A DNA stretch of 64,000 bases from an uncultured Thermoplasmatales archaeon (GTDB taxonomy: Archaea > Thermoplasmatota > E2 > UBA202 > DSCA01): contig CAZESS010000007.1 in NCBI GenBank assembly GCA_964514975.1, forward strand, positions 8,028 through 72,027. Reading direction: 5' to 3'. The position numbers and the translations under genes were made by a program. The notes under the pieces are model-generated. The model searched no databases, had not been told where the DNA came from, and was given only the letters and a program-made list of their open reading frames with translations. This document shows, piece after piece, positions 1-21,033 of the stretch; within the stretch, counting starts at the first letter, position 1, and every line of letters starts with the position of its first letter.

Positions 1-1001
1 AGCAGGTATGCCAGTTTGGGGTTCACCACTAATGTTCGGCCTGTTAGCTCCGCTACGTTTTTTAATGTTTCAAACCGAGTGGTATCCTTCCAACCGAAAT
101 CAACAATAGCGAGGCCGTCCTTTTGTTCAATCATCTTCTGCATATCTTCTTCTACCCCTAGTTCGTCATCCCGTGCCTCTTTATCGATTCTGGTTCCTTC
201 ACACAGCAAAATATCTACAGGGGCATCTTGGATAAACAATTTGAAAGCCTTGGTTCTTTCCATAAAGCGTCCGTGAAATCTGATGTCGCCTGTATACAGC
301 AGCCGTGTACCATCTGAAGTTACAATATAGAATGCGCTTGCCCCTGGCACGCTATGATCAACGGGAAGCATGCGGACCTGTAGAGTTCCAATGGAAATTG
401 GCTCTTTGGATTCTATGGGCCGTATATCTCGTGGGCGTGGTTCTTCTGTTTTTATGCGAGGCTCATCAGGAAACGTGGATCGCTCGGATGTATGGGCTAT
501 TATTCTCTTTTTTATTTGGTAGAACTCGTTTTCTATGCCGCTGCGGGAGACATCAGAGATCGCTTGTAGCATAACCTTGGTGATTGGAGAGCAGTAGATG
601 GGTATCTCGGGGTCTAGATAGGAAATATATTGGTAGTGATCTGCATGTGCATGGCTCAGGAGCACAGCGTCAAGGTAGGGCTTTCCTTCCTTTTTTTTGT
701 AATCTTGGTAGCTTTGTATGTCACAGGTCCAATATTCAGGGCAATCGTAGTCAGCAATCACATCCTCTGCTATATCGATGAGATCGTCTCGGTAAATGCC
801 ATCAACCGCCGGGAGCATGCCTAGCTGTAGAAGATCACGCAGGCAGGAATTGGTTCGTGGCTGCAAAAACTCGTCAAAATACGCGTTCTTTTGCCCGAAA
901 CTCATTCCGAAATCTAGGAAGACTCGGGTTCCATCATTTTCGAGTAAAAATTTATTACCACCGATTTCGTTTATGCCGCCAAAACAAGTTAGTTGGACCA
1001 T
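1..1001 (-). CDS. RNase J-like / beta-CASP metallo-beta-lactamase-fold nuclease (3' end runs off the window; absent from the ORF track)
   Basis: Manual translation from ATG 1001: MVQLTCFGGINEIGGNKFLLENDGTRVFLDFG...LLSHAHADHY...LPVDHSVPGA...YTGDIRFHG...LLCEGT. Has HxHxDH and the other RNase J-type MBL motifs; starts 13 bp after the stop of the UvrD-like gene. Confidence 0.88.
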   Translation of the reverse strand, partial: MVQLTCFGGINEIGGNKFLLENDGTRVFLDFGMSFGQKNAYFDEFLQPRTNSCLRDLLQLGMLPAVDGIYRDDLIDIAEDVIADYDCPEYWTCDIQSYQDYKKKEGKPYLDAVLLSHAHADHYQYISYLDPEIPIYCSPITKVMLQAISDVSRSGIENEFYQIKKRIIAHTSERSTFPDEPRIKTEEPRPRDIRPIESKEPISIGTLQVRMLPVDHSVPGASAFYIVTSDGTRLLYTGDIRFHGRFMERTKAFKLFIQDAPVDILLCEGTRIDKEARDDELGVEEDMQKMIEQKDGLAIVDFGWKDTTRFETLKNVAELTGRTLVVNPKLAYL

Positions 1002-1014
1002 ATTATTTCCCTCA

Positions 1015-3087
1015 TTAATCGGTATGTTTTTCGATTATCTCTCGTATTGCCTCTATGTCAAGGTCTGATTCGTATTTGCCAAGGGAGTAGTCAGTCCTGT
1101 AGAGTTGGTAGGCAAATTTTATGGCTGTTTTTTTATCTCTTTGTTTTACGAAATGAAGATAATTTTTTATGACATCTTCACGGAGGCGTTGTTCGATATT
1201 TGTTTGTTTTTTATGCTTTCTAACATCTTTTTGGGAGAGATGTTTGATGTTGATAAAATTTTGATTGATGTCTTTGAGAAAATCGCAATAATCTCTGTGA
1301 TCACATGTTATTATCAGTTCGTTCATGGCACGGGTCATAGCAACGTATAACAACTTTTTTTGCTGGGTAACATATATGTCTCTTTCTTCTTCGTCAATAT
1401 TTTTTAACCCAGAGAGAAAAAACTTGTTGTCTGCTCCTAAAATGTATACCAATGGAAACTCTAGGCCTTTAGAGGACTGCAGCGTAATACATTTCACCGT
1501 ATTTGCGTTGACGTCCACTGAATCCTTGTAAAAAGACGCATTGATACCTCTTTCTTCTAATTTTTCTGCTACTTTTTTAGCATAATAGGTCCGAGGGCTC
1601 AGTACGCCAATATTTTTTCTAAGGCAGGATGCCGTATCAATTCGGTAGCTTATGTCATCTACAATCCATTCTATCTGGTCTTGAAATGATCCATCAAATT
1701 TTAGCAGTACCGGCTTTAACCCTGTTTTTACAGAACATTCTGGGTCTAATATGTTATCCATATCTGCAATATCTGGATTTTTATCCACAAAACTTTGAGC
1801 TGCCTGCAAAATCTGTTTGGTATTGCGATGATTTTTTGATAATACGTATACATTTTTTGAGCCAATGGTTACCCCGATGTCAGCCCAGCTGAAGCCACTT
1901 TGATAAATACTCTGTGCAGCATCTGCCACTATAAACAATCGGTTTGGATCTTCCACTAACTGCATTGCTATAGAAAAAGCAATTTTATACAAATCTTGAG
2001 CCTCATCGATAATAACATAGTCATATTTTCTGCATTTGGACGTTCTCAGTGTCTCCAATGTTTTTACCAGAATATCAATATAATCATCTCTCCAATTTTT
2101 CAGTCTTTCGTATTCTTCGTATACTTTCCAGACAATTTTTCGTGCTTGTTGGCCGAGAGAGGTCCCACAGCCAATCCTATCGACATCCATATATTGATCA
2201 AACTGAGCTTCGGCTCTCCCCTTAATGATTTCATCAATCTCCTTCCGCCAAAAGCTAAAATTTCTACTGAATAATCTGCTTCGCTCATCTTGTTGCACAT
2301 TTTTAACAGCTTGCTTCAATAAATCATTTAATTTTTCTTGCCATTTATGGTACTTCGGAGGTTTCACTTTCTTGTTATGTCTCTTCAGATACTTTGTGCA
2401 CCATCGATGCAACGTTGAAATCTCTACGCCTTTTGGAATACCGCCCGATAACTCGCTGATTAAAGTTTCTGCAGCTTCCATTAAGCTATGGTTGTATGTA
2501 AGATAGAGAATTCTGTTGGAGTCATTGGCAAAATTTCTCATCCTATAAATTGCAATGGTTGTTTTTCCAGATCCTACCACTCCTTTCACCAAGATGGGGC
2601 TTTTATCCGTTTGTTTTCTCATGAGTTCTTTTTGTTCATCTTCCAGCCTCAGCAAAAGCTGGACAATGTCTCTGCGATAGAATCGACTGAGATGTGTTTC
2701 ATCCTCAGCTTCATAGTAGACTGGTGACTGCCGTTTTTTTGAGGCATGCTGCACTAGCCATTGATCAAGTTTTAATCTCGTTTCAATACTTATCGGTAAA
2801 TTTTTTAGATCTGCTACATCGGTCGCTGCTCTAACATGATCAAAATATCGTTCGGGAATACCCATTTGACGAAGAGCATCATCTTCAAGCAAAGTGAAAG
2901 GGGCTCCATCAATCCCTTCTAATGCCAGCGTTTCTCCTTCTTTCTCAAATATAATTTGCTTATCGGTCTCAATAGTTACGGCTTCTTCCCCCTCACCTAT
3001 CACTTCTGTGAGTGATGCTGATAACTTTTCTTTATCTGGATAATTTTGCAGTTGCTGAGCACAGCTTTCTTTGACATAGATTTCCAT
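1015..3087 (-). CDS. UvrD/Rep-like SF1A helicase with extra N-terminal domain
   Basis: Walker A GVVGSGKT, IIDEAQD, motif III ADAAQSIY, SSKGLEF, LYVAMTRA. N-terminus includes LRQMGIPERY, reminiscent of RelE-fused SF1 helicases. Confidence 0.9.
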   Translation of the reverse strand: MEIYVKESCAQQLQNYPDKEKLSASLTEVIGEGEEAVTIETDKQIIFEKEGETLALEGIDGAPFTLLEDDALRQMGIPERYFDHVRAATDVADLKNLPISIETRLKLDQWLVQHASKKRQSPVYYEAEDETHLSRFYRRDIVQLLLRLEDEQKELMRKQTDKSPILVKGVVGSGKTTIAIYRMRNFANDSNRILYLTYNHSLMEAAETLISELSGGIPKGVEISTLHRWCTKYLKRHNKKVKPPKYHKWQEKLNDLLKQAVKNVQQDERSRLFSRNFSFWRKEIDEIIKGRAEAQFDQYMDVDRIGCGTSLGQQARKIVWKVYEEYERLKNWRDDYIDILVKTLETLRTSKCRKYDYVIIDEAQDLYKIAFSIAMQLVEDPNRLFIVADAAQSIYQSGFSWADIGVTIGSKNVYVLSKNHRNTKQILQAAQSFVDKNPDIADMDNILDPECSVKTGLKPVLLKFDGSFQDQIEWIVDDISYRIDTASCLRKNIGVLSPRTYYAKKVAEKLEERGINASFYKDSVDVNANTVKCITLQSSKGLEFPLVYILGADNKFFLSGLKNIDEEERDIYVTQQKKLLYVAMTRAMNELIITCDHRDYCDFLKDINQNFINIKHLSQKDVRKHKKQTNIEQRLREDVIKNYLHFVKQRDKKTAIKFAYQLYRTDYSLGKYESDLDIEAIREIIEKHTD

Positions 3088-3091
3088 TTTA

Positions 3092-5311
3092 TCACATAAT
3101 AATTTGTTCCATTTCTTGTCCTCTTTTCAGGGCCTCTATCTCATTTATAGGGACAGTAATAGTTACATTTCCACTAGATATCTGTTTATTTATTCGTACT
3201 CTGTGTCCTTCAACTTTGTCAATTGGATATATCTCTCCTCGCCATTGGACAAACAAATAATCTTTCGCCATTTCACGCACAGTTGATAATTCATACATCC
3301 TTTTAGTAGCCGGCCACTCAGATCCAATAGATGCAAAGATGAGGTCAAGTTGATCTAAATCTGTTAATTTGATAGCTTGCCCCCATCTGTCAGCGATGCC
3401 AAGCATTTTGGTGACAAGTCCACCTGGCAGATGTTTGCGAAACGTATCAGCATGCGCTATTATCATCAATCTTTTTTTTGCCCGCGATAACGCAACATTA
3501 AGAAGCATCGGAAGCGCACGATGTTTTTTTTCATTGAGAAAATGGGGGGGAACGGGTGGCGCGTCACAGAGATCCAAAATTATAACGTCTCGTTCTTGGC
3601 CCTGAAATGAGTGGATAGTATTAACAGCAACATCTAGATTAGCCACGTTTTCTTTACTTTTTTCAAGATTTTCAAGAACTTGTTTTATAATCCGACGTTG
3701 CCCTCTATATGGCGTTAAAATCCCAACAGTCGTATCTGCTTGAATACGTCCCACTATATAGGAGATTATTTGGGCATGTTTTATGTTCATTCTCGTTTCT
3801 TCCTTTGTCTCATTCCGTGCATCAAATCCACTGGTATCGATTAAAAATACGGCACCATCTGAGGGCGACATTGGCTGTTTTCTTGAAGATATGGGAATGT
3901 TTTTTAATATCTTGTTAGCGGCTGTATTTAGTTTCCCCCAGTAGAATAGCTGATTCACTATGGTGCATATGTCTGGATGCATTCTATATTGGGTTTGCAA
4001 TATTGGCCGCTTCGGATATTCCTGCATCGCGTTATCTAATTTTGCGTACTCGAAAATATTTGTACCAAGCTGGGTTTCAACCCATGGCATATCAGACTGG
4101 ACAATCGGAGGTAACTGATTAAAATCACCCACTAAGATAAGTGATCGATCAGTTTTCCCAGCTGCATTAATGACTTGGGGAACAGATGCACAACTCACTT
4201 CGTCGATGATTAAAACATCGATATTTTCTAGGTAGGCATCCAGCTGACTATCTGAATATAATTTCGTTAGCGTGGTTCCTATAACTGCTGCTTCTTCAAC
4301 GGCCTGATACACAATCGTTTGTAATTCAGCGTTAATTTTTTTACCTTTAGTTATTTTATCTTCAGAGATATCTGACTGATGAGCTTTAGACATAATATAT
4401 CTCAGAAGCATTCTGGTGTTCATGTCTTTTTTATGTTTCATTTCCTTTTCTTCCATTACTTCAGATCCCAAATCTAACACGGCTTTCCTAAGGTCTAGGT
4501 GTTCACGCTGTACAATTCTTTCAACAGCTTCATCAACTCCTGGCACCTTGTCATTAATTTCTGTAGAGAAATGACCATATCGAAGGAGCTTATGCCGCTG
4601 ATTGAACTTTATAGAACATGCTAATACACTGTTAAGCGCGGTGTCGACAGCTACATTGGTATGGCTTGTTAATAAAACCCTTTTCCCACGTTGTACAAAC
4701 TCATGGGTAAGAACACCTAAGGCAGTTGTTTTTCCTGTCCCCGGCGGCCCCCAGATATATAGTATATCGCTTCCAAGAGCTTTTTCTAAGGCCTTTAATT
4801 GAAACTTGTTTAAATCATATCGATGCTTCACTTTCTTTCTTCCAACATCACCATTGTTATGTAGTAGTTTTTTGATAAGATCGATGTTATAGTCTTCAGG
4901 GTTATCTTTGATAGATGTCAAGGCTTGGGAAAGTTTTTCCAACAAATATGTTAGATCAAAGATTAATCGTCCTCCTGCCAGGTCATCTCCAATGAATTCA
5001 TCAAAATGTATATGTAGAATGTCCTCGTCTTTGTTACAGAATTCGATCTGGCCGAAGATGAATGGGATACCATGTTCCTCATTTGAATAACTGACACTGG
5101 TATCTATAGGAATTTTTTTGTATAGTGTTCCAACGGCAAACTGGTACAAAAAACCGTCACCACTTTGGTCTATGAGAGTAGCAGAGACAACAGGAAGGGG
5201 TTCGCCGATGCCTTTCCGATGCATATCACTTCGAATCCAATTTATTTCCCCAAATATCGCTTGTTGTAAGTCGTTAAACAATTGGATCTCGTCTTGTGAC
5301 CACATCGACAT
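3092..5311 (-). CDS. Upf1/DNA2/NAM7-like SF1B helicase (AAA_11/AAA_12)
   Basis: GPPGTGKT, SHTNVAVD, IIDEVS, VGDFNQLPP, QYRMHPDI, TPYRGQ, TIHSFQGQE, NVALSRAK. Confidence 0.92.
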   Translation of the reverse strand: MSMWSQDEIQLFNDLQQAIFGEINWIRSDMHRKGIGEPLPVVSATLIDQSGDGFLYQFAVGTLYKKIPIDTSVSYSNEEHGIPFIFGQIEFCNKDEDILHIHFDEFIGDDLAGGRLIFDLTYLLEKLSQALTSIKDNPEDYNIDLIKKLLHNNGDVGRKKVKHRYDLNKFQLKALEKALGSDILYIWGPPGTGKTTALGVLTHEFVQRGKRVLLTSHTNVAVDTALNSVLACSIKFNQRHKLLRYGHFSTEINDKVPGVDEAVERIVQREHLDLRKAVLDLGSEVMEEKEMKHKKDMNTRMLLRYIMSKAHQSDISEDKITKGKKINAELQTIVYQAVEEAAVIGTTLTKLYSDSQLDAYLENIDVLIIDEVSCASVPQVINAAGKTDRSLILVGDFNQLPPIVQSDMPWVETQLGTNIFEYAKLDNAMQEYPKRPILQTQYRMHPDICTIVNQLFYWGKLNTAANKILKNIPISSRKQPMSPSDGAVFLIDTSGFDARNETKEETRMNIKHAQIISYIVGRIQADTTVGILTPYRGQRRIIKQVLENLEKSKENVANLDVAVNTIHSFQGQERDVIILDLCDAPPVPPHFLNEKKHRALPMLLNVALSRAKKRLMIIAHADTFRKHLPGGLVTKMLGIADRWGQAIKLTDLDQLDLIFASIGSEWPATKRMYELSTVREMAKDYLFVQWRGEIYPIDKVEGHRVRINKQISSGNVTITVPINEIEALKRGQEMEQIIM

Positions 5312-5329
5312 ATCACAAATAAGAATATA

Positions 5330-5337
5330 TTTATAAA
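5330..5337 (-). promoter_or_regulatory. Archaeal TATA box of the helicase-helicase-nuclease operon
   Basis: TTTATAAA 19-26 bp upstream of ATG 5311, consistent with a leaderless transcript. Confidence 0.55.
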
Positions 5338-5401: not shown

Positions 5402-6951
5402 GGTAGATACAGATTAGCCGTCTTCATATAAAAGGCTGAGTGTTTTTGAGGGAGGCCGTCGCTCAAAAAATTCCGTAAAAAAGAAGAGAATCCCATCCGC
5501 TTTGGAGAGTGGGAATCGAAATGGGATGGGATGAGTTACAAATAGACACGCTCATAAAAACCTGTCGAAAAAAGCTGGACGAGGAGCTCAGTGATGACGG
5601 ACCACAGTTCCCATTGTTCGAAAACCCGACGGAGCAACATCCGGTGGAGACCTCGGAGTTCCTATCGCATCTCCACCTAAATTTCCTGAACCGGATACCC
5701 CGTGAGCTGTTCCCCCGGCTGGAACAGATCAAGCCAGGGGTCCACGCCCGAGTACGGCTGGTGCTCTTCATGAAGCTCCAGGGCATCCAGTACATAACCG
5801 AGGCCTACCGGATCCTGCAGACCAGGCCCATCGTTGCTGAGAACCTCGGGTTTAATCCCACCCATCTGCCGTCCTATGAGACCATACGGCACTTCATCAA
5901 CGATCTGCTGGCGGACATGATCGATGACATATTCTACCGTGTGGTACGGGAGATAGACCGGTATCTGTCGAAGCAGGGGGAATCGCTTGCGAAAGCCCGG
6001 GAAGATGCCACCGTGATCACCGCCCGGCGTGGCGATGCCACCGCATCGTACAGCGGCTATTACAAGACCTGGGGATGGAAAAAGGACCTGATGGTATCCG
6101 AGCAGGGCATCTTCCTCTCCTACAGAGACATGGCGATAACCGACGACGAAGGACAAGCACTCCCCTCTCATCTCGGGACACTGCAGGACCATGGCATCCG
6201 ACTGGACAGCCTCATCGTGGACGGCGGATATCCCAGCTACCGGAACATCGCCATCGCCCACTGCGGATATGGAACGACGCTGCTGTACAAGCCCCAGCAA
6301 CACTAAACCTACAACGAGACGGGCAGCCCCACGGCCATACGGGAACGGTACAGCCGATACTGGCGAGACAAAAGGCATCGGCCAAACGTGGACAGCGAGT
6401 ACATGCTGCAGTTTCTGTACACGAAACGGGAATATGAACGGGTCGGCGCCTGGTTCCGCAACCATCAGGTCCACCGCTATCAGGCGAATGAGCAACTCCG
6501 AGATGAGATCGCTCAGGGGCGAAACCAGAGCGAGGGCTTCAACTCCTACCTGAAGCAACATGTGGGCTTTGAATGCATGCTCCCCTGGAAAGGAGCGGAG
6601 CACGCGTTCTTGCACACCACGCTGTGCCTGCTATCGGTGAACCTGGTGGCGTTGACCCGGCTGCAGAACGGCGTAACGGACAACCTGACCAGCGTCGCCT
6701 ATCTGACATAAATTGAGCGTGTCACCGCAAAAATGGAAAAGCATCGACGCCATTCATTCAGTGTGGGATAGCATCACATCACGGGATATACACCCAATTT
6801 TTACCTGCTTTTTACCCGCGGCTGAACTGCGCAGGTAATTGTTGGCTGCAAACAGCCAAAAAATCGATGCGTCTGCCGCCCTCTTGTTGCATCCCGCCTG
6901 CTACATGACAAAAAAATACAGACGAAAAACCGGCAAATCTGTAACCACCCC
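5402..6951 (+). mobile_element. Insertion sequence (DDE_Tnp_1-type, IS4/IS5-like superfamily)
   Basis: Imperfect terminal inverted repeats GGTAGATACAGATTAGCCG (5402-5420) and CGGCAAATCTGTAACCACC (6931-6949), 16/19 match. Direct repeat ATGATAGGT at 5396-5404 and 6952-6960. Higher GC than flanks. Confidence 0.75.
5509..6711 (+). pseudogene. DDE transposase interrupted by one in-frame TAA (6304-6306)
   Basis: ORFs 5509..6306 and 6388..6711 are in the same frame. Motifs EDATVI, VDGGY and RNQSEGFNSYLK give a D-D-E triad split by the stop. Confidence 0.8.
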
Positions 6952-7051
6952 ATGATAGGTTAATTTTTTGAACGTAAATATATTTATATCAAATTCAGTT
7001 TGTACATTTGATTCGTGAGATGCAAATTGGGCTAATTAACGGGTGAACCTA

Positions 7052-9493: not shown

Positions 9494-10849
9494 TTACGTC
9501 TCTTCAGTAGAATTTTTGAACAATAATCTTTCTTTTACTTTTACCTGATTATCTCCTAGGGGTATAACCGCGATATTGTCAGAAACATGAGATTGTATCT
9601 CCATGGTATCAACGAATAGCCAGCCTTTGATTTTATCTGATACGAATATTCTATCGGGGTTTCGCTCAAAATATCTATTATTTTGTCTGATCAACGCCAT
9701 ATATTCAAGAAGTTCTTTCAGACCTTGGGCAGCATAGTTTTTAGATCGAGTATATTTGACTTCGCCGATAAAGACCTGGCAGAGTTTTTGGTTATCTTTC
9801 TCACATTTTTCAACAAGAATATCTGGTCTTCCCCCCCACAAGGTATCTGACTTTTCCATATCTAGCATTTTTTTACATTGTGTTTGCCAGTTTTGTATCA
9901 CTTTTCCTTCTCGTTTGAGGTATCCATCTTTTTCGGGTAGTTCTATGTCTGCCCAGTGCTCATAGAAACTAAATGTACCGGTGCTATCATGATAAATACG
10001 ATAGAGAAATTCACTGTCTTCCCACTCCGCCACTATATTATGGTCTCCTTCTATCAAATGGAATCGGATTGATTTATCATCCTCTGTCATAGCTCTGATG
10101 ACCTGAAACGTCCAGTATAGCTCGAAGAGAACTTCTATTTTTTCAGGTTTGATAAACGTATTCTGTAACAGTTGTTCTGCCTCGTCTGGATTAATATCAA
10201 AGTTCATCAATTTTTGATAGTCTGAAAGTAATGCTGCCGCTGTCCGGTACAGCTGTGTCCTTGATTTCCTTGCATTTGAGATCATGCGCTGTGTGACATC
10301 TTTGTGGCCTTGTTGGCGTATACGGCGGATGTAGATATTTTTCAAGTAGACTGATTTCACGATATCGGTGAGATTTTCTGTGGTCCATTCCTTGAGCCAT
10401 GGGTGGTCGTATTGTATGGCTGGTTTGAGGTCTTGAAACACGATGTTGTGTATTATGGAGAGCAATTCTTTCAGCACAATGTTTTCGGAGATGCCATAAT
10501 TGCGTTCTCGTCTGTTTACTGAAAAAAGGGTGGGGTCTGCAAAGTTTTCGCTGCATCTTTGCTTAATCGTTTTTTGCCAGTCTATTTTTCCCCGTATTTT
10601 TCCATGTTGTCGCTCGTTCTCCTGGATAGTTGTAGTTTTAATTCGTCGGATCCACTGGGGAACGTGCTCTATAAATTCTATGACATCGTTTCTGAGGACG
10701 AAATGGATGCGGAGTAGTTTTTCCATGTCATCGATGTTTAGCTCTTCATCTATTTTTTTGGTGAATGAGGAAATATTGCCATGTTTGAGGAAGGTAATCA
10801 GATAGCTGCCTACTTCGTCGAGTAAAAATTCGGCTGTTGTTTTAGTCAT
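9494..10849 (-). CDS. mcrC: McrC-like PD-(D/E)xK restriction nuclease subunit
   Basis: GKIRGKIDWQKTI, ENIVLK, LFELY, RPDIL...IGEVKY. ATG 10849 overlaps the McrB stop (ATGACTAA). Confidence 0.8.
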   Translation of the reverse strand: MTKTTAEFLLDEVGSYLITFLKHGNISSFTKKIDEELNIDDMEKLLRIHFVLRNDVIEFIEHVPQWIRRIKTTTIQENERQHGKIRGKIDWQKTIKQRCSENFADPTLFSVNRRERNYGISENIVLKELLSIIHNIVFQDLKPAIQYDHPWLKEWTTENLTDIVKSVYLKNIYIRRIRQQGHKDVTQRMISNARKSRTQLYRTAAALLSDYQKLMNFDINPDEAEQLLQNTFIKPEKIEVLFELYWTFQVIRAMTEDDKSIRFHLIEGDHNIVAEWEDSEFLYRIYHDSTGTFSFYEHWADIELPEKDGYLKREGKVIQNWQTQCKKMLDMEKSDTLWGGRPDILVEKCEKDNQKLCQVFIGEVKYTRSKNYAAQGLKELLEYMALIRQNNRYFERNPDRIFVSDKIKGWLFVDTMEIQSHVSDNIAVIPLGDNQVKVKERLLFKNSTEET

Positions 10850-13800
10850 GTTTAAATTTCTCGGTTGGTATCTCGAAGAAATCAATCGCCATCTCTTTTA
10901 GTCTAGCATATCCTTCGTCATCTGTTAAGCCATTACTTTTTAGTTCTTTGATAAAGTTGATTTGTTCATCTTGTGGAATGCCCTCAAACTGAGGAAAGAC
11001 ATACATAGAAATAGCTGAGACATAGCCACCCCCTTGTTGGATATGGTTGAGCATATCACGTGCGATGGCCGGCCCTATCTTTCTATATTTGTTAATAGTA
11101 GTCCATAGTTTTACTATATCGTTTTTCACTGATTCTGGTAGGTCAGTTATGCCCCATTTAGCTGTAAGATGTGGTAACGCTTCTTCAATATTTTTGGGAA
11201 CGCCGACGTTGATGAAGGCAAATCGTCGCATGAATGCATAGGACATTTCATACAGTGACGCCTTATCAAAGGTGTTCATTGTCGCAATGATTCGCCAGTC
11301 TGGATGAATGAAAAACCGATAGGGGTGGATCTTATCATCTTCTTTGGGATTCCCTAAGACCTTTATTCGATTGCCGTCTAATTCCTGTGCTAGGCGGACA
11401 TTATCGCCCGTGAGAGCTGAAAAGAGAGCTCCGAAAGCTTTGTCTATATCAGCACGGTTTATTTCATCGAGAATAAGCCATTTGTTTGCGGGTTTGCCTT
11501 TTTCGGTTTGGAAACATTCAAGGAAGACACCTGGCTTAAATTCAAGTTGTTGATTTTCACAGGGCATATATCCTCCGATGGTATCAAATGTTGACCAGTC
11601 GGAGGAGGCAGTGACCATGCGGTAATGGTTATCTCCGCAAAATACCTTACATATTTCCTTTGCAAGTTTTGATTTACCGGTGCCAGGTGGGCCGTTAAGA
11701 ATAATATGTTTACCGTTTTTGAGGGCTGTAAGAATCTGGGAGAATAGATTATCAGCTTCTTCAAAATAAAGGTTGCTTTGTTCGATTAGCTGGTGCTCAT
11801 TGCGGTTAAAATTAACTTTAAGTACAGTAGAGTAGCTATGATATTCGGGAACATCTGGTGGTGTTTCTAAAGATAGAATTGTTTCGTATTCTTTGGGTGA
11901 AAGCTCAAAAAGACTCCCCTGTGCCCTGTTGGCAATAGGTGCTGCATCCTGTAAATCTGCTACCTCAGTAAGCTGCTGCCAAGATATGCCTGCGACTTTG
12001 TTGTCATAGCCAATTGTTATGCCTTCAACTTCTCTATCTGGAGCAGGCTTGCCAGGTTCGATATGTAGTCCCTCCTTTATTGCACCAGTTGCTACGATTT
12101 CTTTTACAGGACTTGCTTCATAGAAGATCACCTTGTCTCCCTTACGTGCTTTTTGAAAAGCCTCGTAGATGCGACGTCTGTTACCCTTTTCATTTACAGC
12201 AGAGTAAAAAATGGCACCTCCGTCTTTTATACTATCTACAGACCATATTGCGGGATTAGCAGTAATCCAGAAATAGTTCGGCTGCAAATCCTCATCTTCC
12301 GGGATATAGGGCGCTAAATCTTCAACGCCTTCCTCTAATAGTTTAGAGCGTTTGCTTTCATCTAAAATTGATTTTACAATTTCTGGCTGATTGTATTTTC
12401 GATAGGGGCTGGCATCCCAATCAGCGAACCTCTCGGCGATGATGGTAAGAGTCTGCTTGAAAGTATTCAATAGATCCTTATTGAGAGGCAGCACATCGAA
12501 AGGGAGTTCCGTCAAGCGGACGTTAGAATCAGCAAAATAATCCCACTGCTTTAAAATTAGATCGGGGTCAATATCTCCTTGTAAAGCCATGCCGATGCGA
12601 TAATCATTTTTGCCCTTATAGGAGAAATGGATGACTGCCCAGTTGCCGTAGTTTAACCGAAGGGTATTTCCGCTACGGGTTATGGTGACAGAGGAACATT
12701 CATCTTGTGTGGTAATGCCGATAACATCGAAGGCTTTCTCTAACAAATTAAAGGCAAGGTCTGCATCATGTTTATTGCGGAAAATGGCATCAAAAGGTTC
12801 AGCTAACTTTTTTTGTGTAATGCTCTCAAATTTTTGTTTATCTAGTTCTAAGAGCGTGCGCCGCCAGCCGGGTTCATCGACCTGTTTGGGCGTTGTGTCA
12901 GTCCATTCAACGGGATATCTATGGCCATGTTTTTCGTTAGGTTCGAAATAATAGTGCTCGGTTATTTTACCAAGGCCAAGAACTTCAGTTATCCCTCGAT
13001 TTGCAACAATATAATCGCCAATTTTTATTTCATTCACAAATTTCCAGAGTTGTTCCATACCCTCAGTAGTATAATCCTCATTCTCGGCCACTAATTTATC
13101 TCGCCTGTTTTCAAATTCTTCTCGATTCATTTGGGATATATCACCAGTTTTATCCCATCCAATAGCAATAAATTCTCCCTCGCGACAGGTATCCCAGTTC
13201 CATGCATTTTTTCCAGGAGATATTTTCCAATAGCGAGTTGTATCAACATTATTTATTTCTTTGAATGTCGGGTATACGGATTGCAATTTTTGTAGTACCT
13301 GGTTTAATGAAAATGATTCTGCATTAGGCACAGTTTCGAAGTCATGATCTAAAACCTTACTCCTAATATTCTCACCAATTGCTAAGCCATACATTATTTT
13401 ATCATGATATACACCGAGAAACAGTTGCGCCGCATCCTGATGGCTATCATATCCTGCGGGATATAATGCTATCCAGCAAGAACTGATTCCAAAATTGCGG
13501 TTCCAGGAAAAATCGTTAATGGTATTTTTTTCATCAAACCGTGTATCCCCAAATGGTTTGTATTGTCGTAGATATGCATGTAGCGTGGTGAGCAGGTAGG
13601 ATATTTTCGGTTTGAAATAAATGAAGTATATCTGAAACAAAATACGAAATTCATTCCAACTTTTTAGAAAAGCCTCACCATAGGTTGTACTCTTTTGCCC
13701 CATGACTTTATGAACATACTCAATACTGATGGGTTCATCCGCCAATATTTTCTTGATAATCTTATGTTTAATATCATTAATCTTTTCACTATCACGATAC

Positions 13801-14573
13801 TTTTTTTCCATATCAGCTAAATGGTCTCTGTCCATTTGAGAAATGGCATCCACAAATTCGCTCGGATTCTCCTCGAAGTTCTTGAGGCGCTGTGCAAAAT
13901 CAAAAAGACATTTTACATATATTTTGTATTTTAGTTCATCATATCCGCTTATACAGTATAGAAAATCCTGCGCGTCCATAACGTCTGGGTTATTAACGAC
14001 TCCATAATCATCTAAAAATTCTGAAATTTCGTTGCATACCAAAATATATGCCACGTATTTTTCCCCGATGTCTGATCTTGAATAATTAAATTCTAAATCG
14101 CTAAGAGCTTGAAAATGTGTAAAAAGTTCTTTCCTATACAGCGGATATTTGCGGGGATTGAATGCCGCTAAAATAAAGGCAAAGAAGGCTGTTCCGAAAT
14201 TTCCATAGGTGATTTCTTTTAGTGTATCCCGAGCTTTCTCGATTCTTTCTTGTAGGGGAATAGATCCGTTTTGTAAAAGATTAAATTGTTCTGCAACAAG
14301 TGCAGGGTTCTCTTGTGCGGCACGTTTTAGATTATTTATTTCTGACCAATAAACAAAAGAACCACTGCTAGGATTATATTCCTCAAGTAAAGATATCTTT
14401 TTCAATATGGAATCCTTGGTAAAATTACCATCAATAAATTTTGTATGCAACCCTGGCAGTATATCCCATTTATACTGTTCATCCCATACTGCGGTACCTC
14501 GAAATTTTTTATATTCATTCGCAGCAATATCAAAAAAATGATCAGATTTTATTTCTTCAGCTATGTCTCCCAT
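10842..14573 (-). CDS. mcrB: McrB-like AAA+ GTPase with about 950 aa of N-terminal recognition domains including EVE-like domains
   Basis: GPPGTGKS, LILDEINRAD, IIATMNTFD (NxxD signature), AFMRRF. EVE-like NYFWITANP...GDKVIFY and RYWKISPG...GDYIV. Start MGDIAEE at 14573 avoids overlap with the divergent gene. Confidence 0.88.
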   Translation of the reverse strand: MGDIAEEIKSDHFFDIAANEYKKFRGTAVWDEQYKWDILPGLHTKFIDGNFTKDSILKKISLLEEYNPSSGSFVYWSEINNLKRAAQENPALVAEQFNLLQNGSIPLQERIEKARDTLKEITYGNFGTAFFAFILAAFNPRKYPLYRKELFTHFQALSDLEFNYSRSDIGEKYVAYILVCNEISEFLDDYGVVNNPDVMDAQDFLYCISGYDELKYKIYVKCLFDFAQRLKNFEENPSEFVDAISQMDRDHLADMEKKYRDSEKINDIKHKIIKKILADEPISIEYVHKVMGQKSTTYGEAFLKSWNEFRILFQIYFIYFKPKISYLLTTLHAYLRQYKPFGDTRFDEKNTINDFSWNRNFGISSCWIALYPAGYDSHQDAAQLFLGVYHDKIMYGLAIGENIRSKVLDHDFETVPNAESFSLNQVLQKLQSVYPTFKEINNVDTTRYWKISPGKNAWNWDTCREGEFIAIGWDKTGDISQMNREEFENRRDKLVAENEDYTTEGMEQLWKFVNEIKIGDYIVANRGITEVLGLGKITEHYYFEPNEKHGHRYPVEWTDTTPKQVDEPGWRRTLLELDKQKFESITQKKLAEPFDAIFRNKHDADLAFNLLEKAFDVIGITTQDECSSVTITRSGNTLRLNYGNWAVIHFSYKGKNDYRIGMALQGDIDPDLILKQWDYFADSNVRLTELPFDVLPLNKDLLNTFKQTLTIIAERFADWDASPYRKYNQPEIVKSILDESKRSKLLEEGVEDLAPYIPEDEDLQPNYFWITANPAIWSVDSIKDGGAIFYSAVNEKGNRRRIYEAFQKARKGDKVIFYEASPVKEIVATGAIKEGLHIEPGKPAPDREVEGITIGYDNKVAGISWQQLTEVADLQDAAPIANRAQGSLFELSPKEYETILSLETPPDVPEYHSYSTVLKVNFNRNEHQLIEQSNLYFEEADNLFSQILTALKNGKHIILNGPPGTGKSKLAKEICKVFCGDNHYRMVTASSDWSTFDTIGGYMPCENQQLEFKPGVFLECFQTEKGKPANKWLILDEINRADIDKAFGALFSALTGDNVRLAQELDGNRIKVLGNPKEDDKIHPYRFFIHPDWRIIATMNTFDKASLYEMSYAFMRRFAFINVGVPKNIEEALPHLTAKWGITDLPESVKNDIVKLWTTINKYRKIGPAIARDMLNHIQQGGGYVSAISMYVFPQFEGIPQDEQINFIKELKSNGLTDDEGYARLKEMAIDFFEIPTEKFKHD

Positions 14574-14685
14574 GTCTGGATAAGTTACTAAAGATTTATT
14601 AATTTTTAGATAGCGGATTTGGAATACAACAAAATTTTTTAAAAGATTAAACCATTGTCCCATTACGAAATGGAGGAAACCATAC

Positions 14686-17600
14686 ATGGCTAAGAACTCC
14701 CAGTTGTCATCGATATATGAAGGCTGCAAGCCACGCAGTGAAATATTGGAAGGTGCTCTAAGATTAGAAGCATTTGCGGCTAATCTGTCTATGGTGGCCC
14801 AGGATGAGGGCCCTAATATTTACAAAGACCCTGAGACTTTTTTTGCGAATACTTATCCCACTGAGGGGTTGAAAACCACGATAAGAGAGGTTTTTGGCCG
14901 ACTCACTGGAAGCCGTGAGGGAAGCCCTGTCATAAAGTTGGAGACAGGTTTGGGTGGCGGTAAAACGCATACCCTGATAGCATTATATCATATTGCCAGG
15001 CATGGGTCGACGATTAAAAATATTGGTGAGCTTCTTGATGAATTGCAAGTGGAGCCGATGTCGGTTGCTGCTTTGGTGGGTACAGAATTGGCAGTTGGTG
15101 GTTCCATGCCACCTAAGACCTTGTGGGGTGAAATGGCTCAGCAACTCCGAGGTGATGAGGGCTACGCCATTTTAAAGGCATCTGATGAGAGCATGACGAG
15201 TCCTGGAGAGCGAGTGCTACGGGAGCTATTCGGTGACGAGAATTGTTTGATTTTGCTGGATGAGTTAGCACAGTATTTGACGAAAGCCTCGGCAACTCCT
15301 ATTCCAGAGTCGGGCTCCAATCTGGGGAAGCAGACTGCTGCTTTTTTGCAGGAGTTGACACAGGTTGCTGCCTCTATGGACAACGTTGAATTAGTGCTAA
15401 CAGCGCTCGATGAAAAATCAGTCTATGAGGACGAAACGAAGAACATTCGGGATGTGTTGGAAGCTGCGCTGGAAGAGGAAGAGATTCGGAAAAACGTTCA
15501 GGATACGAAAGAAATATTGACGCGGATTGTTCGGACGTTAGAGCCGACGAAGGGGGAAGAATTTGCACATATCATTCGTCATCGGCTGTTCGAAGATATT
15601 GATGCCTCGGTCCGTGAGAAGGTTGTTGAAGCATATCTGGATGGCTATCGGAGTGATGGGGTAAAGGAATTCTTGCCGAGTGAGACCCAGGACCCTGAGT
15701 ACCGTGAGGTGATGATTAAGTCATATCCATTCCACCCAGAGGTAATCGATATTCTTCGAACTAAGACAAGCAGCATTGAGAACTTCAATAAGACTCGTGG
15801 TGTACTGCGGCTGTTGAGTGTCCTGTTGAAAAACACATGGGATAACCGAGATGAATATGCTCCCTCTCTTATCCATCCGTATCATTTTGATTTTTATGAT
15901 GATACGATTCGGGCAGAGCTGATACATCGGCTGGATATGGTGGAGCTCATGCCAGCTATTGGGGAGGATTTGGCCAACGAGGATAAGGAGACACGGGCGG
16001 AGGTGGTGGATAAGATGTTCAAGGAACCCTATGGGTCTCGGGTAACGACAACTGTATTATTGCATAGTCTAACCCAGAAACTCAAAGCGGATATCCACAA
16101 GGGAGCTAACAGTGCTGAGGTTCATCTTGCGATGTGGAAGCCGGGATTGGACCCTGAGACAGTGAACGCGGTGCTGGAGCATCTGGATGAGACATGGTTT
16201 TATTTTGGTCCTGAGGGGCAGTATTATGTCGCGGGTCTGAATCCTCGTCTAACGAAGATTATCGATGATACTAAGGAACAGATTGGGCAGACGAGTGTGA
16301 ATCAGGAAGTGGAAGACTGGATTCGGAAGGTGTTTCATGCTAAGAAATTTTTCAAGCCTGTGTTCTTCCCGAGTTCTCCTTCGGATGTCAATGATGATAC
16401 CAAACAGCAGACAAAGCTTGCGGTGATGCATTATACGGATTGTCGACTGGAGCACGGATCACAGCGTATTCCAGATTTGGTGAGAAAGATTTTTGAGGAG
16501 ACAGGATCGCAAGGGAAGCCACGGTCGTTTATCAACAACTTGGTTTTTTTGGTGCCCGATACAGACAGGGTGAAGCAGATGCAGGCTCAGGCGCGGCAGT
16601 ATCTCGCGCTCCGACAGCTTATTCAGGAATACGAGGGTGGAGCGTCTTATCTCTCTGCCCTCACAAAGGGTCAGAGACAGGATTTGCGGCAGAAACGCGA
16701 TGAGACGGAGCTCTATCTTAAGGTTGCCGTTATCATTGCCTATAAGCATGTTATTGTCCCGACGCCGCAGGCGTCGCTCTCTCAGGCGTCTAGCCAGCGT
16801 CCGTTGCGAGTTATAAGCATGCGTGACACTGAACGAGATATTGAAAACCGGCTCCAGGAAGGAGAAACGGCGGAAGAATCACTTGCATCGTTCCTTCGAG
16901 ATAGAGAGGTGGCGCGGACGATGGACGACAAGCCGCTTTCACCAGAGCGGATACTGGACGGACTTTGGAGAAAGACGGCGGAGCAGCTTGATGGAGACGA
17001 GTTCAAGAAGCTGTTCTACAAGAATCCATTGGCAGGTATTCATTTCAGCGATGAGCTTATCCGAAAGTCTATGAAGAAGGGGATACAGGAGGGCAAATGG
17101 TACGCCGTAGCAGCTGACAATTTCTATGACGAAGAGAACTGGCAGAGTTTCAATCCTACCTTTACCACCGACACAATTATTATCCTCGCTGATTCCGAGG
17201 CAGGCAAAGAAAAACATGACCAATATTATTGCTCCACATGTGGGAAACGAAAAACAGAATGCATCTGCGACAAACAACCAAAAGCACCCGAGGAAACTTG
17301 TCCAAAGTGCGGCAGGAAAAAATCCGAGTGTATATGCGGTCCTAAACCTATTTCCACGTTTGAGAAAAAGGGCTTGACCATGGAGCGCATTGGAAGCAAT
17401 CTACAAGCCTGGATAGATGATGAAGACATCCAAAAAATTAGAGTGGCACGGTTTGGAGCATTAAGCAGGACGGCGCTGAGCGCACTTGCAAAGGCATTGA
17501 AACAGTTCAGGACCGACTATGAAGTCATATTTGATATAAAAGGAGAGATGACTCGGCCGGAAGAGGAGATGGAGTTCGAACTGAGATATCGCGGCGGGGA

Positions 17601-17802: not shown

Positions 17803-17804
17803 AT

Positions 17805-18257
17805 ATGGCACGGAAGCGTCTTGGTTACAGGTTGGCGGTAAAACCTCTCTCTGATGACGACTTTAAATGTCTGTTACGAGCGGAGCCAGTAGTTGACTCT
17901 GATGCTCCTTCTGGAAGAAAAAGCCGACTGGTGTCCTCGTTGAACGGGTGGCGGCTCGACGTGGCCATGGGCTTCATAAAACGGATGCTGAAGGAGGAAA
18001 GATACAAGCCATCACGTCTGAATCGTAGCAGGAAAACACCATTCCAGCTTGACGAGCAACATGGAGCAAAACTCGACTTGGTATTCCGAGCCATCAAGGA
18101 CATCCAGAAACGAACAAAAATGGAAGAAATCATCTATGGCATCGAGGGAATGAGTGGTGAGGAGGCGCTCTATTGGCATTCAAAGCTTGAGCAGGACTTC
18201 AAACGGCCAGAGAAAAGAGCATTGAAAGCACTACGAATCATGCTTGGAGGAGAATAA
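17805..18257 (+). CDS. DUF3780-like small protein
   Basis: Sits between the DUF499 and DUF1156 genes; GAKLDLVFRAI...MSGEEALYW...ALKALRIML pattern. Confidence 0.72.
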   Translation: MARKRLGYRLAVKPLSDDDFKCLLRAEPVVDSDAPSGRKSRLVSSLNGWRLDVAMGFIKRMLKEERYKPSRLNRSRKTPFQLDEQHGAKLDLVFRAIKDIQKRTKMEEIIYGIEGMSGEEALYWHSKLEQDFKRPEKRALKALRIMLGGE

Positions 18258-18258
18258 A

Positions 18259-21030: not shown

Positions 21031-21033
21031 AGT

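Follow-up and report, generated by a model that had tools for sequence, protein, structure and literature searches.

A putative mosaic anti-MGE operon pairing two SF1 helicases with a beta-CASP–CARF–PIN–HAD module in an archaeal defence island

We describe six adjacent genes of an archaeal metagenome-assembled genome (MAG), three of which lie at the left edge of the 64,000-nucleotide stretch of DNA analysed here (the window). Our preferred but tentative reading, to which we give a probability of about 0.45, is a mosaic operon directed against mobile genetic elements (MGEs), in which a rare helicase pair has been grafted onto a catalogued, CRISPR-independent CARF–PIN–HAD(+beta-CASP) module. The second half belongs to an archaeal family that has already been catalogued, with a putative function; its combination with the helicase pair was seen nowhere else among the loci examined. 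An earlier note on this DNA had proposed that two helicases of opposite polarity feed a nuclease as an antiviral sensor–effector, an interpretation that is partly supported. The genes beyond the window change the reading, because the recurrent partners of the nuclease are CARF proteins, not helicases.

Operon architecture

Three co-oriented open reading frames (ORFs) called on the minus strand of the window are spaced by 4 bp (3088–3091) and 13 bp (1002–1014), as the earlier note had described, and they stand behind a single TATA-box-like element, TTTATAAATA. Sequence inspection places this element 17–26 nt 5′ of the gene 1 ATG, a spacing from which a leaderless or near-leaderless archaeal transcript would result. 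The third gene, reported as missing from the original ORF track, indeed enters the ORF list only if open-ended frames are permitted, and the suspicion that the operon continues past the left edge proved correct: CARF, PIN and HAD genes follow there. The features are listed below, with those to the left of the window in coordinates of contig C7 of the host genome (G000); subtracting 8027 from a C7 position gives the window position.

5327–5336, minus strand: TATA-box-like element TTTATAAATA, putative promoter (sequence inspection)
3092–5311, minus strand: gene 1, Upf1/IGHMBP2-like SF1B helicase, 739 aa
1015–3087, minus strand: gene 2, UvrD/Rep-like SF1A helicase, 690 aa
1–1001, minus strand: window part of gene 3, beta-CASP metallo-beta-lactamase (MBL) nuclease, running off the left edge (ORF 3–1001, first 333 codons)
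G000:C7:7412–9028: gene 3 in full, 538 aa
C7:6909–7415: gene 4, CARF_m1 protein, 168 aa, overlapping gene 3 by 4 bp, left of the window
C7:5893–6912: gene 5, PIN partner (predicted RNase) of 339 aa, sharing 4 bp with gene 4, left of the window
C7:5237–5929: gene 6, HAD phosphatase, 230 aa, overlapping gene 5 by 37 bp, left of the window

The successive spacings of genes 1–6 are +4, +13, −4, −4 and −37 bp. Inspection of the 13-bp gap between genes 2 and 3 and of the 3′-terminal part of gene 2 revealed no obvious TATA box; a ribosome-binding-like GAGGG precedes the gene 3 ATG. Longer gaps or strand changes lie between the other island neighbours in the window. All six proteins retain intact catalytic motifs, and genes 1–6 probably constitute one tightly packed, co-transcribed operon.

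The helicase pair

Gene 1 is a Upf1-like SF1B helicase, with an AAA_11/AAA_12 core (Pfam, 1.8e-31 and 8.4e-33, respectively), a 1B barrel with its stalk, and SF1 motifs. Its architecture comprises an N-terminal helix and 1B-like beta-barrel, two RecA domains and a small C-terminal beta domain (residues ~687–736), and the motifs GPPGTGKT (188), IIDE (368), GDFNQLPP (395) and QYRMH (441) are intact. Foldseek searches with the predicted structure (pLDDT 88.6) matched Upf1 and IGHMBP2 with TM up to 0.75 (TMt 0.75 for IGHMBP2), as well as SETX, Dna2 and ZNFX1; against the NCBIfam IGHMBP2 family the protein scores 189 bits, below the cut-off of 348.9.

Gene 2 matches Pfam UvrD-helicase (2.5e-27) and UvrD_C (1.1e-18) and carries GSGKT (172), IIDEAQD (359), KGLEF (540) and MTRA (584). 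Every NCBIfam match is far under its cut-off, and the match to the PADLOC model NERD+UvrD C3a187 (4e-46) covers the helicase part only. The N-terminal domain (residues 1–150), to which no family could be assigned, is shared with the protein P0244 (31% identity over 150 aa, E 7e-22); a RelE-like identity for it was rejected on comparison. By family rules, SF1A and SF1B motors have opposite polarities.

Relatives of both helicases probably stand together on one further public contig. P0123 is the third-best relative of gene 1 (38% identity), and P0244, which has the same N-terminal domain, is the second-best relative of gene 2 (43% identity). Each is a single-contig protein from the same two sources, and both contigs measure 15,635 bp; it is these matching numbers that point to a shared contig. 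No close relative of gene 3 from that presumed contig is among the best 120 matches.

The beta-CASP nuclease

Gene 3 is a member of the beta-CASP subfamily, with HxHxDH, the later His and Asp ligands, insert motifs A–C and an RMMBL tail. It matches Pfam Lactamase_B_2 (5.1e-13) and RMMBL (8.4e-5), and the motifs HAHADH (117–122), DHSVPG (215), TGD (237), SGHA (489) and IHTEH (512) bear out the earlier description of intact HxHxDH beta-CASP motifs. H117, H119, D121, H122, H216, D239, H487, H491 and H513 are invariant in 26 members of the family. The predicted structure (pLDDT 90.1) finds 2AZ4 (EF2904) as its best Foldseek match (TMt 0.81), followed by bacterial and archaeal RNase J and then CPSF-73, and the top of the list consists of beta-CASP enzymes only. 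With these Pfam matches and structure models, the earlier family calls for all three genes (Upf1/DNA2-like, UvrD-like and RNase J-like in fold) were right.

We rejected the identification of gene 3 as RNase J proper or as a host orthologue. It scores 58.1 bits against the NCBIfam RNase J family (TIGR00649; cut-off 400) and has 22% identity to the 452-aa beta-CASP gene on contig C14 of the host. Three other RMMBL/beta-CASP genes are present in the host genome (637, 452 and 436 aa), and on the gene 3 family profile these paralogues score 66, 39 and 23 bits, compared with 840 bits for gene 3. Because the host already encodes three beta-CASP enzymes, gene 3 represents an extra, acquired copy; it is not the only RNase J of the host, a possibility that the earlier note had raised.

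CARF, PIN and HAD proteins

On profile evidence, gene 4 is a stand-alone CARF_m1 protein that matches PADLOC PDLC01971 (CARF_m1--CARF) over the full span of the model (1.2e-48, positions 2–154 of 156). It has TPGRK at 109, a motif kept across the family, and the family profile matches Crn1/Sso2081 (3.6e-6), Card1 and PDB entry 9JXW. Gene 5 is, by sequence homology, a PIN partner equivalent to the C-terminal half of fused CARF–PIN proteins, and is predicted to be an RNase: its residues 63–317 align to profile positions 218–456 of 465 in PDLC01973 (CARF_m1--CARF_PIN; 3.8e-19), and D112, T113, R182, D216, D240 and K301 are invariant, and E142 nearly so, in 15 PIN partners. Fused forms do exist, as the PDLC01973 profile covers both halves, and among the best 150 family representatives, four measure 510–531 aa and have a PIN match that begins at residue ~175–181. 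The PIN partner adjoins CARF_m1 in all 20 loci. Gene 6 matches Pfam HAD_2 (2.5e-33), has DMDNT at 18 and scores 134.5 bits against TIGR02253 (cut-off 169.75).

Foreign composition and island setting

The operon is foreign in composition, patchy in distribution and situated in a laterally acquired defence island. Gene 1 occurs in 1 of 401 genomes of the phylum and gene 2 in 1 of 197 genomes of the class, in each case this genome only. The gene 3 family is found in 42 of the 197 class genomes and in none of 12 from the host's family; CARF_m1 is found in 38 of 401 genomes and in none of 11 from that family. The earlier note had called the operon uniformly AT-rich. It is AT-rich (GC 0.38–0.46, compared with 0.577 for the genome) but not uniformly so: both helicases have a GC of 0.38–0.39, whereas the nuclease and CARF genes are at 0.45–0.46. 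From gene 2 to gene 3, GC/GC3 rises from 0.379/0.352 to 0.453/0.466, a step that points to separate origins and would allow mere juxtaposition.

The McrBC-like and restriction-like neighbours noticed earlier are both present, the former as a giant McrB-like EVE+AAA_5 gene (10842–14729) and the latter as a system that PADLOC models name Hma (HmaC 1.2e-111, HmaB 9e-83 and HmaA 2.8e-66). The same island carries PDC-M57B and a transposase remnant, and a tyrosine integrase (27721–28662) lies at a GC step. Integration at a tRNA, as had been suggested, was not confirmed, because an ARAGORN scan of the window, of the 14 kb to its left and of the entire 72-kb contig C7 detected no tRNA. An Rfam search of the window at gathering level returned no matches.

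Gene neighbourhoods in other genomes

The combination of helicases, nuclease and CARF–PIN–HAD genes was seen nowhere else among the loci examined. At the thresholds used, helicases like gene 1 or gene 2 occurred in 0 of 80 and 0 of 14 loci (0/94) with gene 3 relatives; a match to the gene 1 profile in locus L223 (E 9e-4), just under the cut-off, was set aside from this count. Conversely, none of 74 loci with gene 1 relatives had a gene 3-like nuclease, a CARF or a PIN gene. The earlier note had named a failure of the three genes to co-occur elsewhere as grounds for refutation, and for the trio this failure is largely borne out among these loci. Close relatives of gene 1 or gene 2 were also absent from 20 CARF_m1 loci, two of which contain other SF1 helicases: L122 (an AddA-like UvrD–PD-(D/E)XK protein) and L130 (an SF1 fragment at a contig end).

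Where the gene 3 family has any recurring neighbours, these are CARF proteins (CARF–PIN pairs and CARF–wHTH regulators), not helicases. The relevant arrangements are as follows.

L113, L127: CARF–PIN with HAD
L131, L025: CARF–PIN–HAD–MBL
L086: CARF–PIN–MBL
L031: PIN, MBL and HAD
L116, L236: MBL ~5 kb away

A CARF–wHTH regulator adjoins the nuclease in six further MBL loci. The link between nuclease and CARF–PIN is a minority pattern, seen in 3 of 20 CARF-anchored and 3 of 94 nuclease-anchored loci, and most CARF–PIN pairs of related archaea sit in a housekeeping context (homoserine dehydrogenase, LeuA-like, ribosomal L10e and CTP synthase genes), not in defence islands.

Search for a signal synthase

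We searched the MAG (98.9% complete) for a source of the CARF signal. The genome has no match to Cmr2/Csm1 (TIGR02577, TIGR02578), RAMP (PF03787) or Cas1 (PF01867), and a k-mer scan found coding tandem repeats only and no CRISPR array; cas genes and arrays alike can drop out of MAGs. With no Cas10 in the genome or at the locus, we rejected an ancillary (cOA) module of a type III CRISPR–Cas system. Neither mCpol (PF18182) nor GGDEF (PF00990) has a match in the genome, and the lone SMODS (PF18144) match, considered as a CD-NTase, is the CCA-adding enzyme. Signalling of the Panoptes or CBASS type was therefore rejected, as no mCpol, CD-NTase or GGDEF synthase was found.

Possible mechanism and competing explanations

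Co-transcription, cooperation of the two halves, ligand, substrates and antiviral role are all matters that we infer. In the mosaic operon that we favour, the CARF protein would bind a small nucleotide signal and switch on its paired PIN RNase, and the resulting RNA cleavage could halt growth or clear the invader. Nucleic acid and nucleotides may be the targets of the beta-CASP nuclease and the HAD phosphatase, which would either produce or remove the signal or else contribute to the damage, and the helicases, moving in opposite directions by family rule, might unwind duplexes or structured regions for the nucleases. A bolder version, which we consider quite improbable, is self-contained, CRISPR-independent surveillance, in which the helicases and beta-CASP enzyme would process invader RNA or DNA and thereby make the oligonucleotide or nucleotide signal of the CARF protein, which would fire the PIN RNase, with HAD resetting the signal. 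If true, this would be, in outline, a prokaryotic counterpart of RNA surveillance by a Upf1 helicase and a PIN endonuclease, and would answer which ligand CRISPR-less CARF proteins read.

The composition step between genes 2 and 3 also suits two independent systems set end to end by tight island packing, a helicase pair (a defence or repair module) beside a beta-CASP–CARF–PIN–HAD module. Phyletic patterns differ in the same sense, genes 1 and 2 being unique to this genome among 401 and 197 relatives and CARF_m1 and the nuclease being patchy but common; moreover, the presumed second contig of the helicase pair contributes no close nuclease relative to the best 120 matches, and CARF–PIN modules occur elsewhere without such helicases. 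Yet the junction is a gap of just 13 bp in which neither a promoter nor a terminator is visible, GAGGG stands ahead of gene 3, other island neighbours in the window are set apart by longer gaps or strand changes, and two helicases with no effector at their side, nuclease or otherwise, would make an unusual defence system on their own. We regard this arrangement as rather unlikely. The same close spacing of 4 and 13 bp would fit an autonomous sensor–effector trio in which, much as in RecBCD, opposite-polarity helicases supply the beta-CASP nuclease with substrate, with CARF–PIN–HAD as a separate add-on. RecBCD and AddAB follow a logic of SF1A motor, SF1B motor and nuclease that the trio would share, and helicases are established partners of beta-CASP RNases, as ASH-Ski2 is of archaeal RNase J. 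However, the trio is conserved in none of the 94 and 74 loci, the GC of the nuclease gene resembles that of the CARF gene and not that of the helicases, and its recurring neighbours elsewhere are CARF–PIN, HAD and CARF–wHTH genes. We consider the idea very unlikely.

A role outside defence deserves mention, namely an RNA-turnover or stress-response module, composed of RNA helicases, an RNase J-like enzyme, a PIN RNase and a nucleotide phosphatase, that reads an endogenous nucleotide signal and rides on a mobile island. It would accord with the conserved housekeeping neighbourhoods of most CARF_m1–PIN pairs in related archaea, with a genome that has neither cyclase nor CRISPR and with the RNA helicases Upf1, IGHMBP2 and SETX as closest structural relatives of gene 1. 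Such a module is hard to square with six genes of foreign composition that the genus and family of the host lack, with a position between Hma, the McrB-like gene and other defence candidates, and with a host that already possesses three beta-CASP enzymes; we consider it highly improbable.

Comparison with known systems

Neither PADLOC models nor the literature searched yielded a named system with this make-up, in agreement with the earlier note. Genes 4–6 match split archaeal CARF_m1 + PIN (+HAD) operons, with HAD next in line as in L113, L127, L131 and L025; they differ in standing behind two SF1 helicases and a beta-CASP gene within one putative operon, and in that they lie in a defence island and not in a mostly housekeeping setting. 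The CARF_m groups reportedly derive from a census by Makarova et al. (2020). Among solved structures, the 429-aa ‘PIN domain-containing protein’ of PDB 9JXW/9JXX is the sole chain matched by both the CARF (1.5e-3) and PIN (0.024) profiles, and thus fits a single-chain CARF–PIN relative; the similarity in both cases is weak, and its two domains are fused, as opposed to the split pair of genes 4 and 5.

Gene 1 shares its Upf1-like helicase type with Mokosh (PADLOC MkoA 3.5e-68, MkoC 2.4e-36), and its closer relatives among the matches listed are six proteins at 32–38% identity and P0241, the others being mostly ~1070-aa helicase–PLD proteins. Mokosh consists of MkoA (~1100 aa) and the PLD nuclease MkoB, or in type II of the helicase–PLD fusion MkoC. 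By contrast, the 739-aa gene 1 protein aligns to the helicase core of MkoA only (profile positions 586–1081 of 1112). Mokosh was rejected, as none of the six genes encodes a PLD domain and the nucleases are of the beta-CASP and PIN types. With RecBCD and AddAB the operon shares SF1A and SF1B motors encoded beside a nuclease, but its SF1B motor is Upf1-like and not RecD-like. These systems were rejected on scores far below family values (recB 62 bits compared with 696, recD 40 with 310 and addA 47 with 708) and for want of a PD-(D/E)XK domain. Gene 2 matches several GajB models (best 4.9e-33) through the shared UvrD core only, and Gabija was rejected because PADLOC finds no GajA among 24 island proteins.

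Chp offers a precedent for an HAD phosphatase tied to a CARF sensor and acting as a nucleotide-depleting effector. It is a CARF–HAD phosphatase effector of type III-A CRISPR that depletes ATP, dATP and IMP, and a single bacterial membrane protein activated by cA4 from Cas10 (PMC12715507). The HAD protein here differs in being separate and soluble-looking, in a genome with no Cas10. RNase J shares the fold and motifs of gene 3 (TMt 0.55–0.72) but only 14–18% identity, and EF2904 (2AZ4), a beta-CASP protein of E. faecalis, has the same fold and the same metal and beta-CASP motifs, with a sequence match at E 4e-23 and TMt 0.81.

A probable six-gene operon of mosaic composition

The operon comprises six genes rather than three. 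The earlier note had described three co-oriented genes separated by 4- and 13-bp gaps behind one TATA box, an arrangement that the ORFs and the box confirm, and its suspicion that the operon might run past the left edge of the window proved well founded: genes 4–6 lie there on the same contig (C7; window coordinates are C7 coordinates minus 8027).

Genes of the operon and its TATA-like box (window coordinates unless C7 is given)
3092–5311, minus: gene 1, Upf1-like helicase, ORF of 739 aa
1015–3087, minus: gene 2, UvrD-like helicase, ORF of 690 aa
3–1001, minus: gene 3, beta-CASP nuclease, in-window part, ORF of 333 aa, open at the left edge
C7:7412–9028, minus: gene 3, entire, 538 aa
C7:6909–7415, minus: gene 4, stand-alone CARF protein, 168 aa; PADLOC model 'CARF_m1--CARF', 1.2e-48 over the entire profile
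C7:5893–6912, minus: gene 5, PIN protein, 339 aa; C-terminal PIN half of 'CARF_m1--CARF_PIN', 3.8e-19
C7:5237–5929, minus: gene 6, HAD phosphatase, 230 aa; HAD_2, 2.5e-33
5327–5336, minus: TATA-like box TTTATAAATA, 17–26 nt upstream of the gene 1 ATG

Left of the window, genes 3/4, 4/5 and 5/6 overlap by 4, 4 and 37 bp, and the 13-bp gap between genes 2 and 3 contains GAGGG before gene 3. The final 100 nt of gene 2 show no TATA box, and co-transcription of all six genes is therefore plausible as judged from the DNA.

The island has a GC content of ~0.40 from window position 1 to ~27,000 and ~0.58 past that. At 0.38–0.46, against 0.577 for the genome, the six genes are as AT-rich as had been claimed, but they are not uniformly so: the helicases stand at 0.38–0.39 and the nuclease and CARF genes at 0.45–0.46. 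The GC/GC3 values (gene 1, 0.394/0.343; gene 2, 0.379/0.352; gene 3, 0.453/0.466; gene 4, 0.460/0.491; gene 5, 0.42/0.435; gene 6, 0.41/0.411), together with the differing phyletic patterns of the helicases and the remaining genes, indicate a mosaic in which a helicase pair has been joined onto a beta-CASP/CARF–PIN–HAD module.

Protein families

The three families originally proposed (Upf1-like, UvrD-like and beta-CASP) are all borne out by Pfam matches and structural models, and the catalytic motifs of all six encoded proteins are intact in a sequence check, including the HxHxDH motif already noticed in gene 3 (HAHADH, residues 117–122). Gene 1 encodes a Upf1-like SF1B helicase (Pfam AAA_11/AAA_12), the model of which (pLDDT 88.6) matches Upf1, IGHMBP2 (TM 0.75), senataxin, Dna2 and ZNFX1; its best PADLOC model is MkoA of the Mokosh defence system, over the helicase core only. 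Gene 2 encodes a UvrD-like helicase with an N-terminal domain of 150 residues for which no family match was found. A RelE-like identity for this domain had been suggested by the Atlas (0.88, under the 0.9 level for leads) and by a ParE/RelE domain in the distant relative P0258, and was dropped because a comparison brought no similarity to light. In the PDB search the CARF profile was nearest to the Crn1 ring nucleases (Sso2081, 3.6e-6), Card1 and the CARF–PIN chain 9JXW; its TAL-effector matches are repeat artefacts.

Gene 3 encodes a beta-CASP enzyme, the model of which (pLDDT 90.1) is nearest to the uncharacterised Enterococcus faecalis structure 2AZ4 (TMt 0.81), followed by bacterial and archaeal RNase J and then CPSF-73, and the protein scores far under the NCBI RNase J cut-off. 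Comparison with the RNase J of the host, which the earlier note had called for, rules out that gene 3 is the host's own enzyme: the genome holds three other RMMBL-bearing genes (637, 452 and 436 aa), the nearest of these paralogues shares 22% identity with gene 3, and the gene 3 family profile separates them cleanly, at 840 bits for gene 3 and 66, 39 and 23 bits for the paralogues. Across the class, 42 of 197 genomes carry a member of this family, and the 12 genomes from the host's own family have none.

The helicases are rare and the trio is not conserved

The gene 3 family (~530 aa) is large, with 3154 matches at E<=1e-5 among 8000 scored, the best of them at 55% and 53% identity to gene 3. 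The two helicases and the nuclease do not form a conserved trio: in none of the 80 + 14 loci compared does the nuclease have a gene 1 or gene 2 relative at the cut-off beside it. The 80 loci come from species-representative genomes (31–47% identity), and their flanks yielded no gene 1 or gene 2 relative by tblastn or profile; none passed the cut-off in the 14 further loci of the host's class, one of which (L223) has a gene-1-profile match just below it (E 9e-4).

Gene 1 was detected in one of 401 genomes in a sample of the phylum and gene 2 in one of 197 from the class; each time the genome was this one. Among the matches listed, full-length relatives of gene 1 are very few (P0122 and P0123 at 38%, P0124 at 35%, and a few besides), and most of the rest are helicase–PLD proteins of ~1070 aa, of the MkoC kind, that match in the core only. 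The metagenome matches listed do not exceed 34% identity where substantial, with a few short fragments higher. In 74 metagenome loci with distant gene 1 relatives, drawn from listed matches that include generic Walker-A patterns and lack the contigs of the closest relatives, a gene-2-like helicase lies nearby once, and the nuclease, CARF, PIN and HAD were found in none. A viral origin was rejected, as viral contigs scanned with P0241 and P0002, the nearest relatives of genes 1 and 3 respectively, gave no match.

The helicase pair itself probably occurs elsewhere. P0123, the third-best listed relative of gene 1, and P0244, the second-best listed relative of gene 2 (43% identity, with the N-terminal domain of gene 2, E 7e-22), are each known from a single contig of 15,635 bp and come from the same two sources; the two are probably co-located on one contig, because such a match between top-three relatives from two independent searches is very unlikely to arise by chance. 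Another candidate pair (P0003/P0131, 5,947 bp) was not relied on, since a few chance matches are expected among 120 x 120 listed proteins, and a third (P0054/P0124, 2,673 bp) is impossible by size.

Partners of the CARF–PIN pair and the nuclease

CARF_m1, the family of gene 4, was found in 38 of the 401 phylum genomes and in none of 11 from the host's family, and a PIN partner adjoins it in all 20 contexts compared. The partner family comprises 584 representatives at 50% identity, and these are mostly 330–380 aa long; a few of 510–531 aa, in which the match starts near residue 175–181, are fused forms. A HAD gene follows CARF–PIN in L113 (at 50% identity), L127 and L131, the order CARF–PIN–HAD–nuclease occurs in L131 and L025, and CARF–PIN–nuclease in L086. 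PIN, nuclease and HAD are all present in L031, and in L116 and L236 the nuclease lies ~5 kb from CARF–PIN. A CARF–wHTH protein (HFX_2341_N or Cas_APE2256 plus a winged helix) adjoins the nuclease in six other nuclease loci. CARF–PIN, HAD and CARF–wHTH are the only recurrent partners of the nuclease that we saw, and its link with CARF–PIN is a minority arrangement (3 of 20 CARF-anchored and 3 of 94 nuclease-anchored loci).

Most CARF–PIN pairs lie in housekeeping neighbourhoods. In five loci of one family (L115, L116, L117, L118 and L119), CARF_m1–PIN stands beside homoserine dehydrogenase, a LeuA-like synthase and a gene of ~310–330 aa (~510 aa in L116), and this conserved setting suggests vertical inheritance in that family. 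Another archaeon of the phylum (L122, G011:C96:1-10797) offers a second defence-type context for CARF_m1–PIN. There the pair is flanked on one side by a PLD nuclease that carries a TrmB-like domain and on the other by a CARF-like wHTH regulator, just past which are a PAZ–Piwi Argonaute (810 aa) and a 1002-aa UvrD–PD-(D/E)XK helicase–nuclease.

No signal synthase detected in the host genome

Type III CRISPR systems, or mCpol in Panoptes, make the cyclic oligoadenylates that CARF sensors are understood to read. The 98.9% complete genome revealed no Cas10, RAMP, Cas1, mCpol or GGDEF protein; the sole SMODS-like match, considered as a possible CD-NTase, is the CCA-adding enzyme. A k-mer scan of the genome found no CRISPR arrays, and the two candidates that it flagged are tandem repeats within coding sequence. 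These repeats of 69–90 bp, on two other contigs (C27:4360-4770 and C29:1-2360), mimic CRISPR spacing, and the genes that contain them look like beta-helix/NosD-type surface proteins.

A tentative composite defence operon

We tentatively read the six genes as a composite operon directed against mobile genetic elements (probability about 0.45). We infer a mechanism in which binding of a nucleotide signal to the CARF protein would activate the PIN RNase. Nucleic acid and nucleotides would be the targets of the beta-CASP nuclease and the HAD enzyme, and the helicase pair would open the way to structured substrates. A precedent for the HAD role is Chp, a CARF–HAD effector that depletes ATP, dATP and IMP (PMC12715507). 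Against this reading stand the housekeeping surroundings of most CARF–PIN pairs and the lack of a second instance of the six-gene combination.

Rather unlikely, though the strongest of the alternatives, is that genes 1–2 and genes 3–6 are two systems merely juxtaposed: the GC step, the differing phyletic patterns and the probable occurrence of the helicase pair on another contig speak for it, and the gap of only 13 bp, in which no promoter is visible, speaks against it. We give little credence to the autonomous trio of the earlier note, whose three genes are adjacent and whose helicases have no relative at the cut-off beside the nuclease in any locus compared. Just as improbable is a non-defence module for RNA turnover; the housekeeping neighbourhoods, the lack of any cyclase or CRISPR found in the genome and the RNA helicases among the structural matches of gene 1 speak for it, and the foreign composition of the six genes, the defence systems around the operon and the host's own three beta-CASP enzymes speak against it.

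For the composite operon, novelty resides in the combination. The CARF–PIN half is catalogued, because PADLOC has CARF and CARF–PIN models; our literature searches found no experimental paper on it, and the 2025 CRISPR classification introduces the names Crf1–11 (PMC12669027). No such arrangement turned up in searches that paired CARF with beta-CASP, or beta-CASP with helicases in a defence context, nor is one mentioned in the accessible portion of an archaeal defence survey. The six-gene combination is new and has been met once. Archaeal CARF–PIN pairs without a synthase nearby number in the hundreds, and this locus ties one of them to two helicases and a beta-CASP nuclease in one operon of a mobile defence island. 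Because one pair is thus tied to three nucleic-acid enzymes, the locus offers a compact, portable test case for protection, for the parts needed and for the CARF ligand. If the parts are independent, it is an ordinary case of genes packed into an island and adds a further member to a catalogued family.

Island setting

McrBC and a restriction-like system had been recognized nearby, and we found there a McrB-like protein and a system identified as Hma by PADLOC models. The proposed integration at a tRNA was not upheld: ARAGORN detected no tRNA in the window, the 14 kb to its left or the whole contig, and an Rfam search of the window likewise gave none. An integrase lies at the GC step of the island.

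Neighbouring features (window coordinates unless C7 is given)
5463–6615: transposase remnant, DUF772 8e-5, GC 0.53 (host-like)
9494–14729, minus: McrB-like cassette, 1295-aa protein then 463-aa partner
14686–24711, plus: Hma-type system, four genes, complete
within 14686–24711, plus: HmaC-like DUF499 ATPase, 1.2e-111
17805–18257, plus: DUF7680 small gene, part of the Hma-type system
within 14686–24711, plus: HmaB-like DUF1156 methylase, 9e-83
within 14686–24711, plus: PLD+SNF2 helicase, 1225 aa, HmaA 2.8e-66; also PbeA and DrmD models
C7:2059–5207, plus: SbcD/Mre11-like phosphoesterase (356 aa) overlapping a Rad50/SMC-like ATPase (695 aa)
C7:294–1674, plus: PDC-M57B homologue (8.3e-79), preceded by a YaaA-like protein

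The 1295-aa protein combines a PDC-S02/REase-like region (~499–615), an EVE domain (818–953) and a McrB-type AAA_5 GTPase (1008–1170), and its 463-aa partner has a weak DUF6826 match only. The two genes, which share the strand of the operon and lie ~4 kb upstream of it, resemble a modification-reading cassette of the McrBC type. Between this cassette and the operon promoter, directly upstream of the latter, is the transposase remnant; no clear terminal inverted repeats that would mark IS boundaries were found on the upstream side of gene 1. An AT-rich inverted repeat of 15 nt (5319–5333/6975–6989, 87% complementary) puts similar TATA-like boxes in front of gene 1 (minus) and of a plus-strand DUF1232 gene at 7043, and could represent shared promoter boxes or merely an AT-rich promoter consensus.

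Left of the window, the 695-aa ATPase has weak PADLOC matches at its N terminus only (LmuB, PD-T4-4_A and HEC-01A). Its coiled coil is interrupted midway by a hydrophobic stretch of ~40 residues (296–335), which suggests an SMC-like protein anchored in the membrane. At the contig end, the YaaA-like protein, which bears a C-terminal zinc ribbon, and the PDC-M57B homologue form another candidate defence pair.
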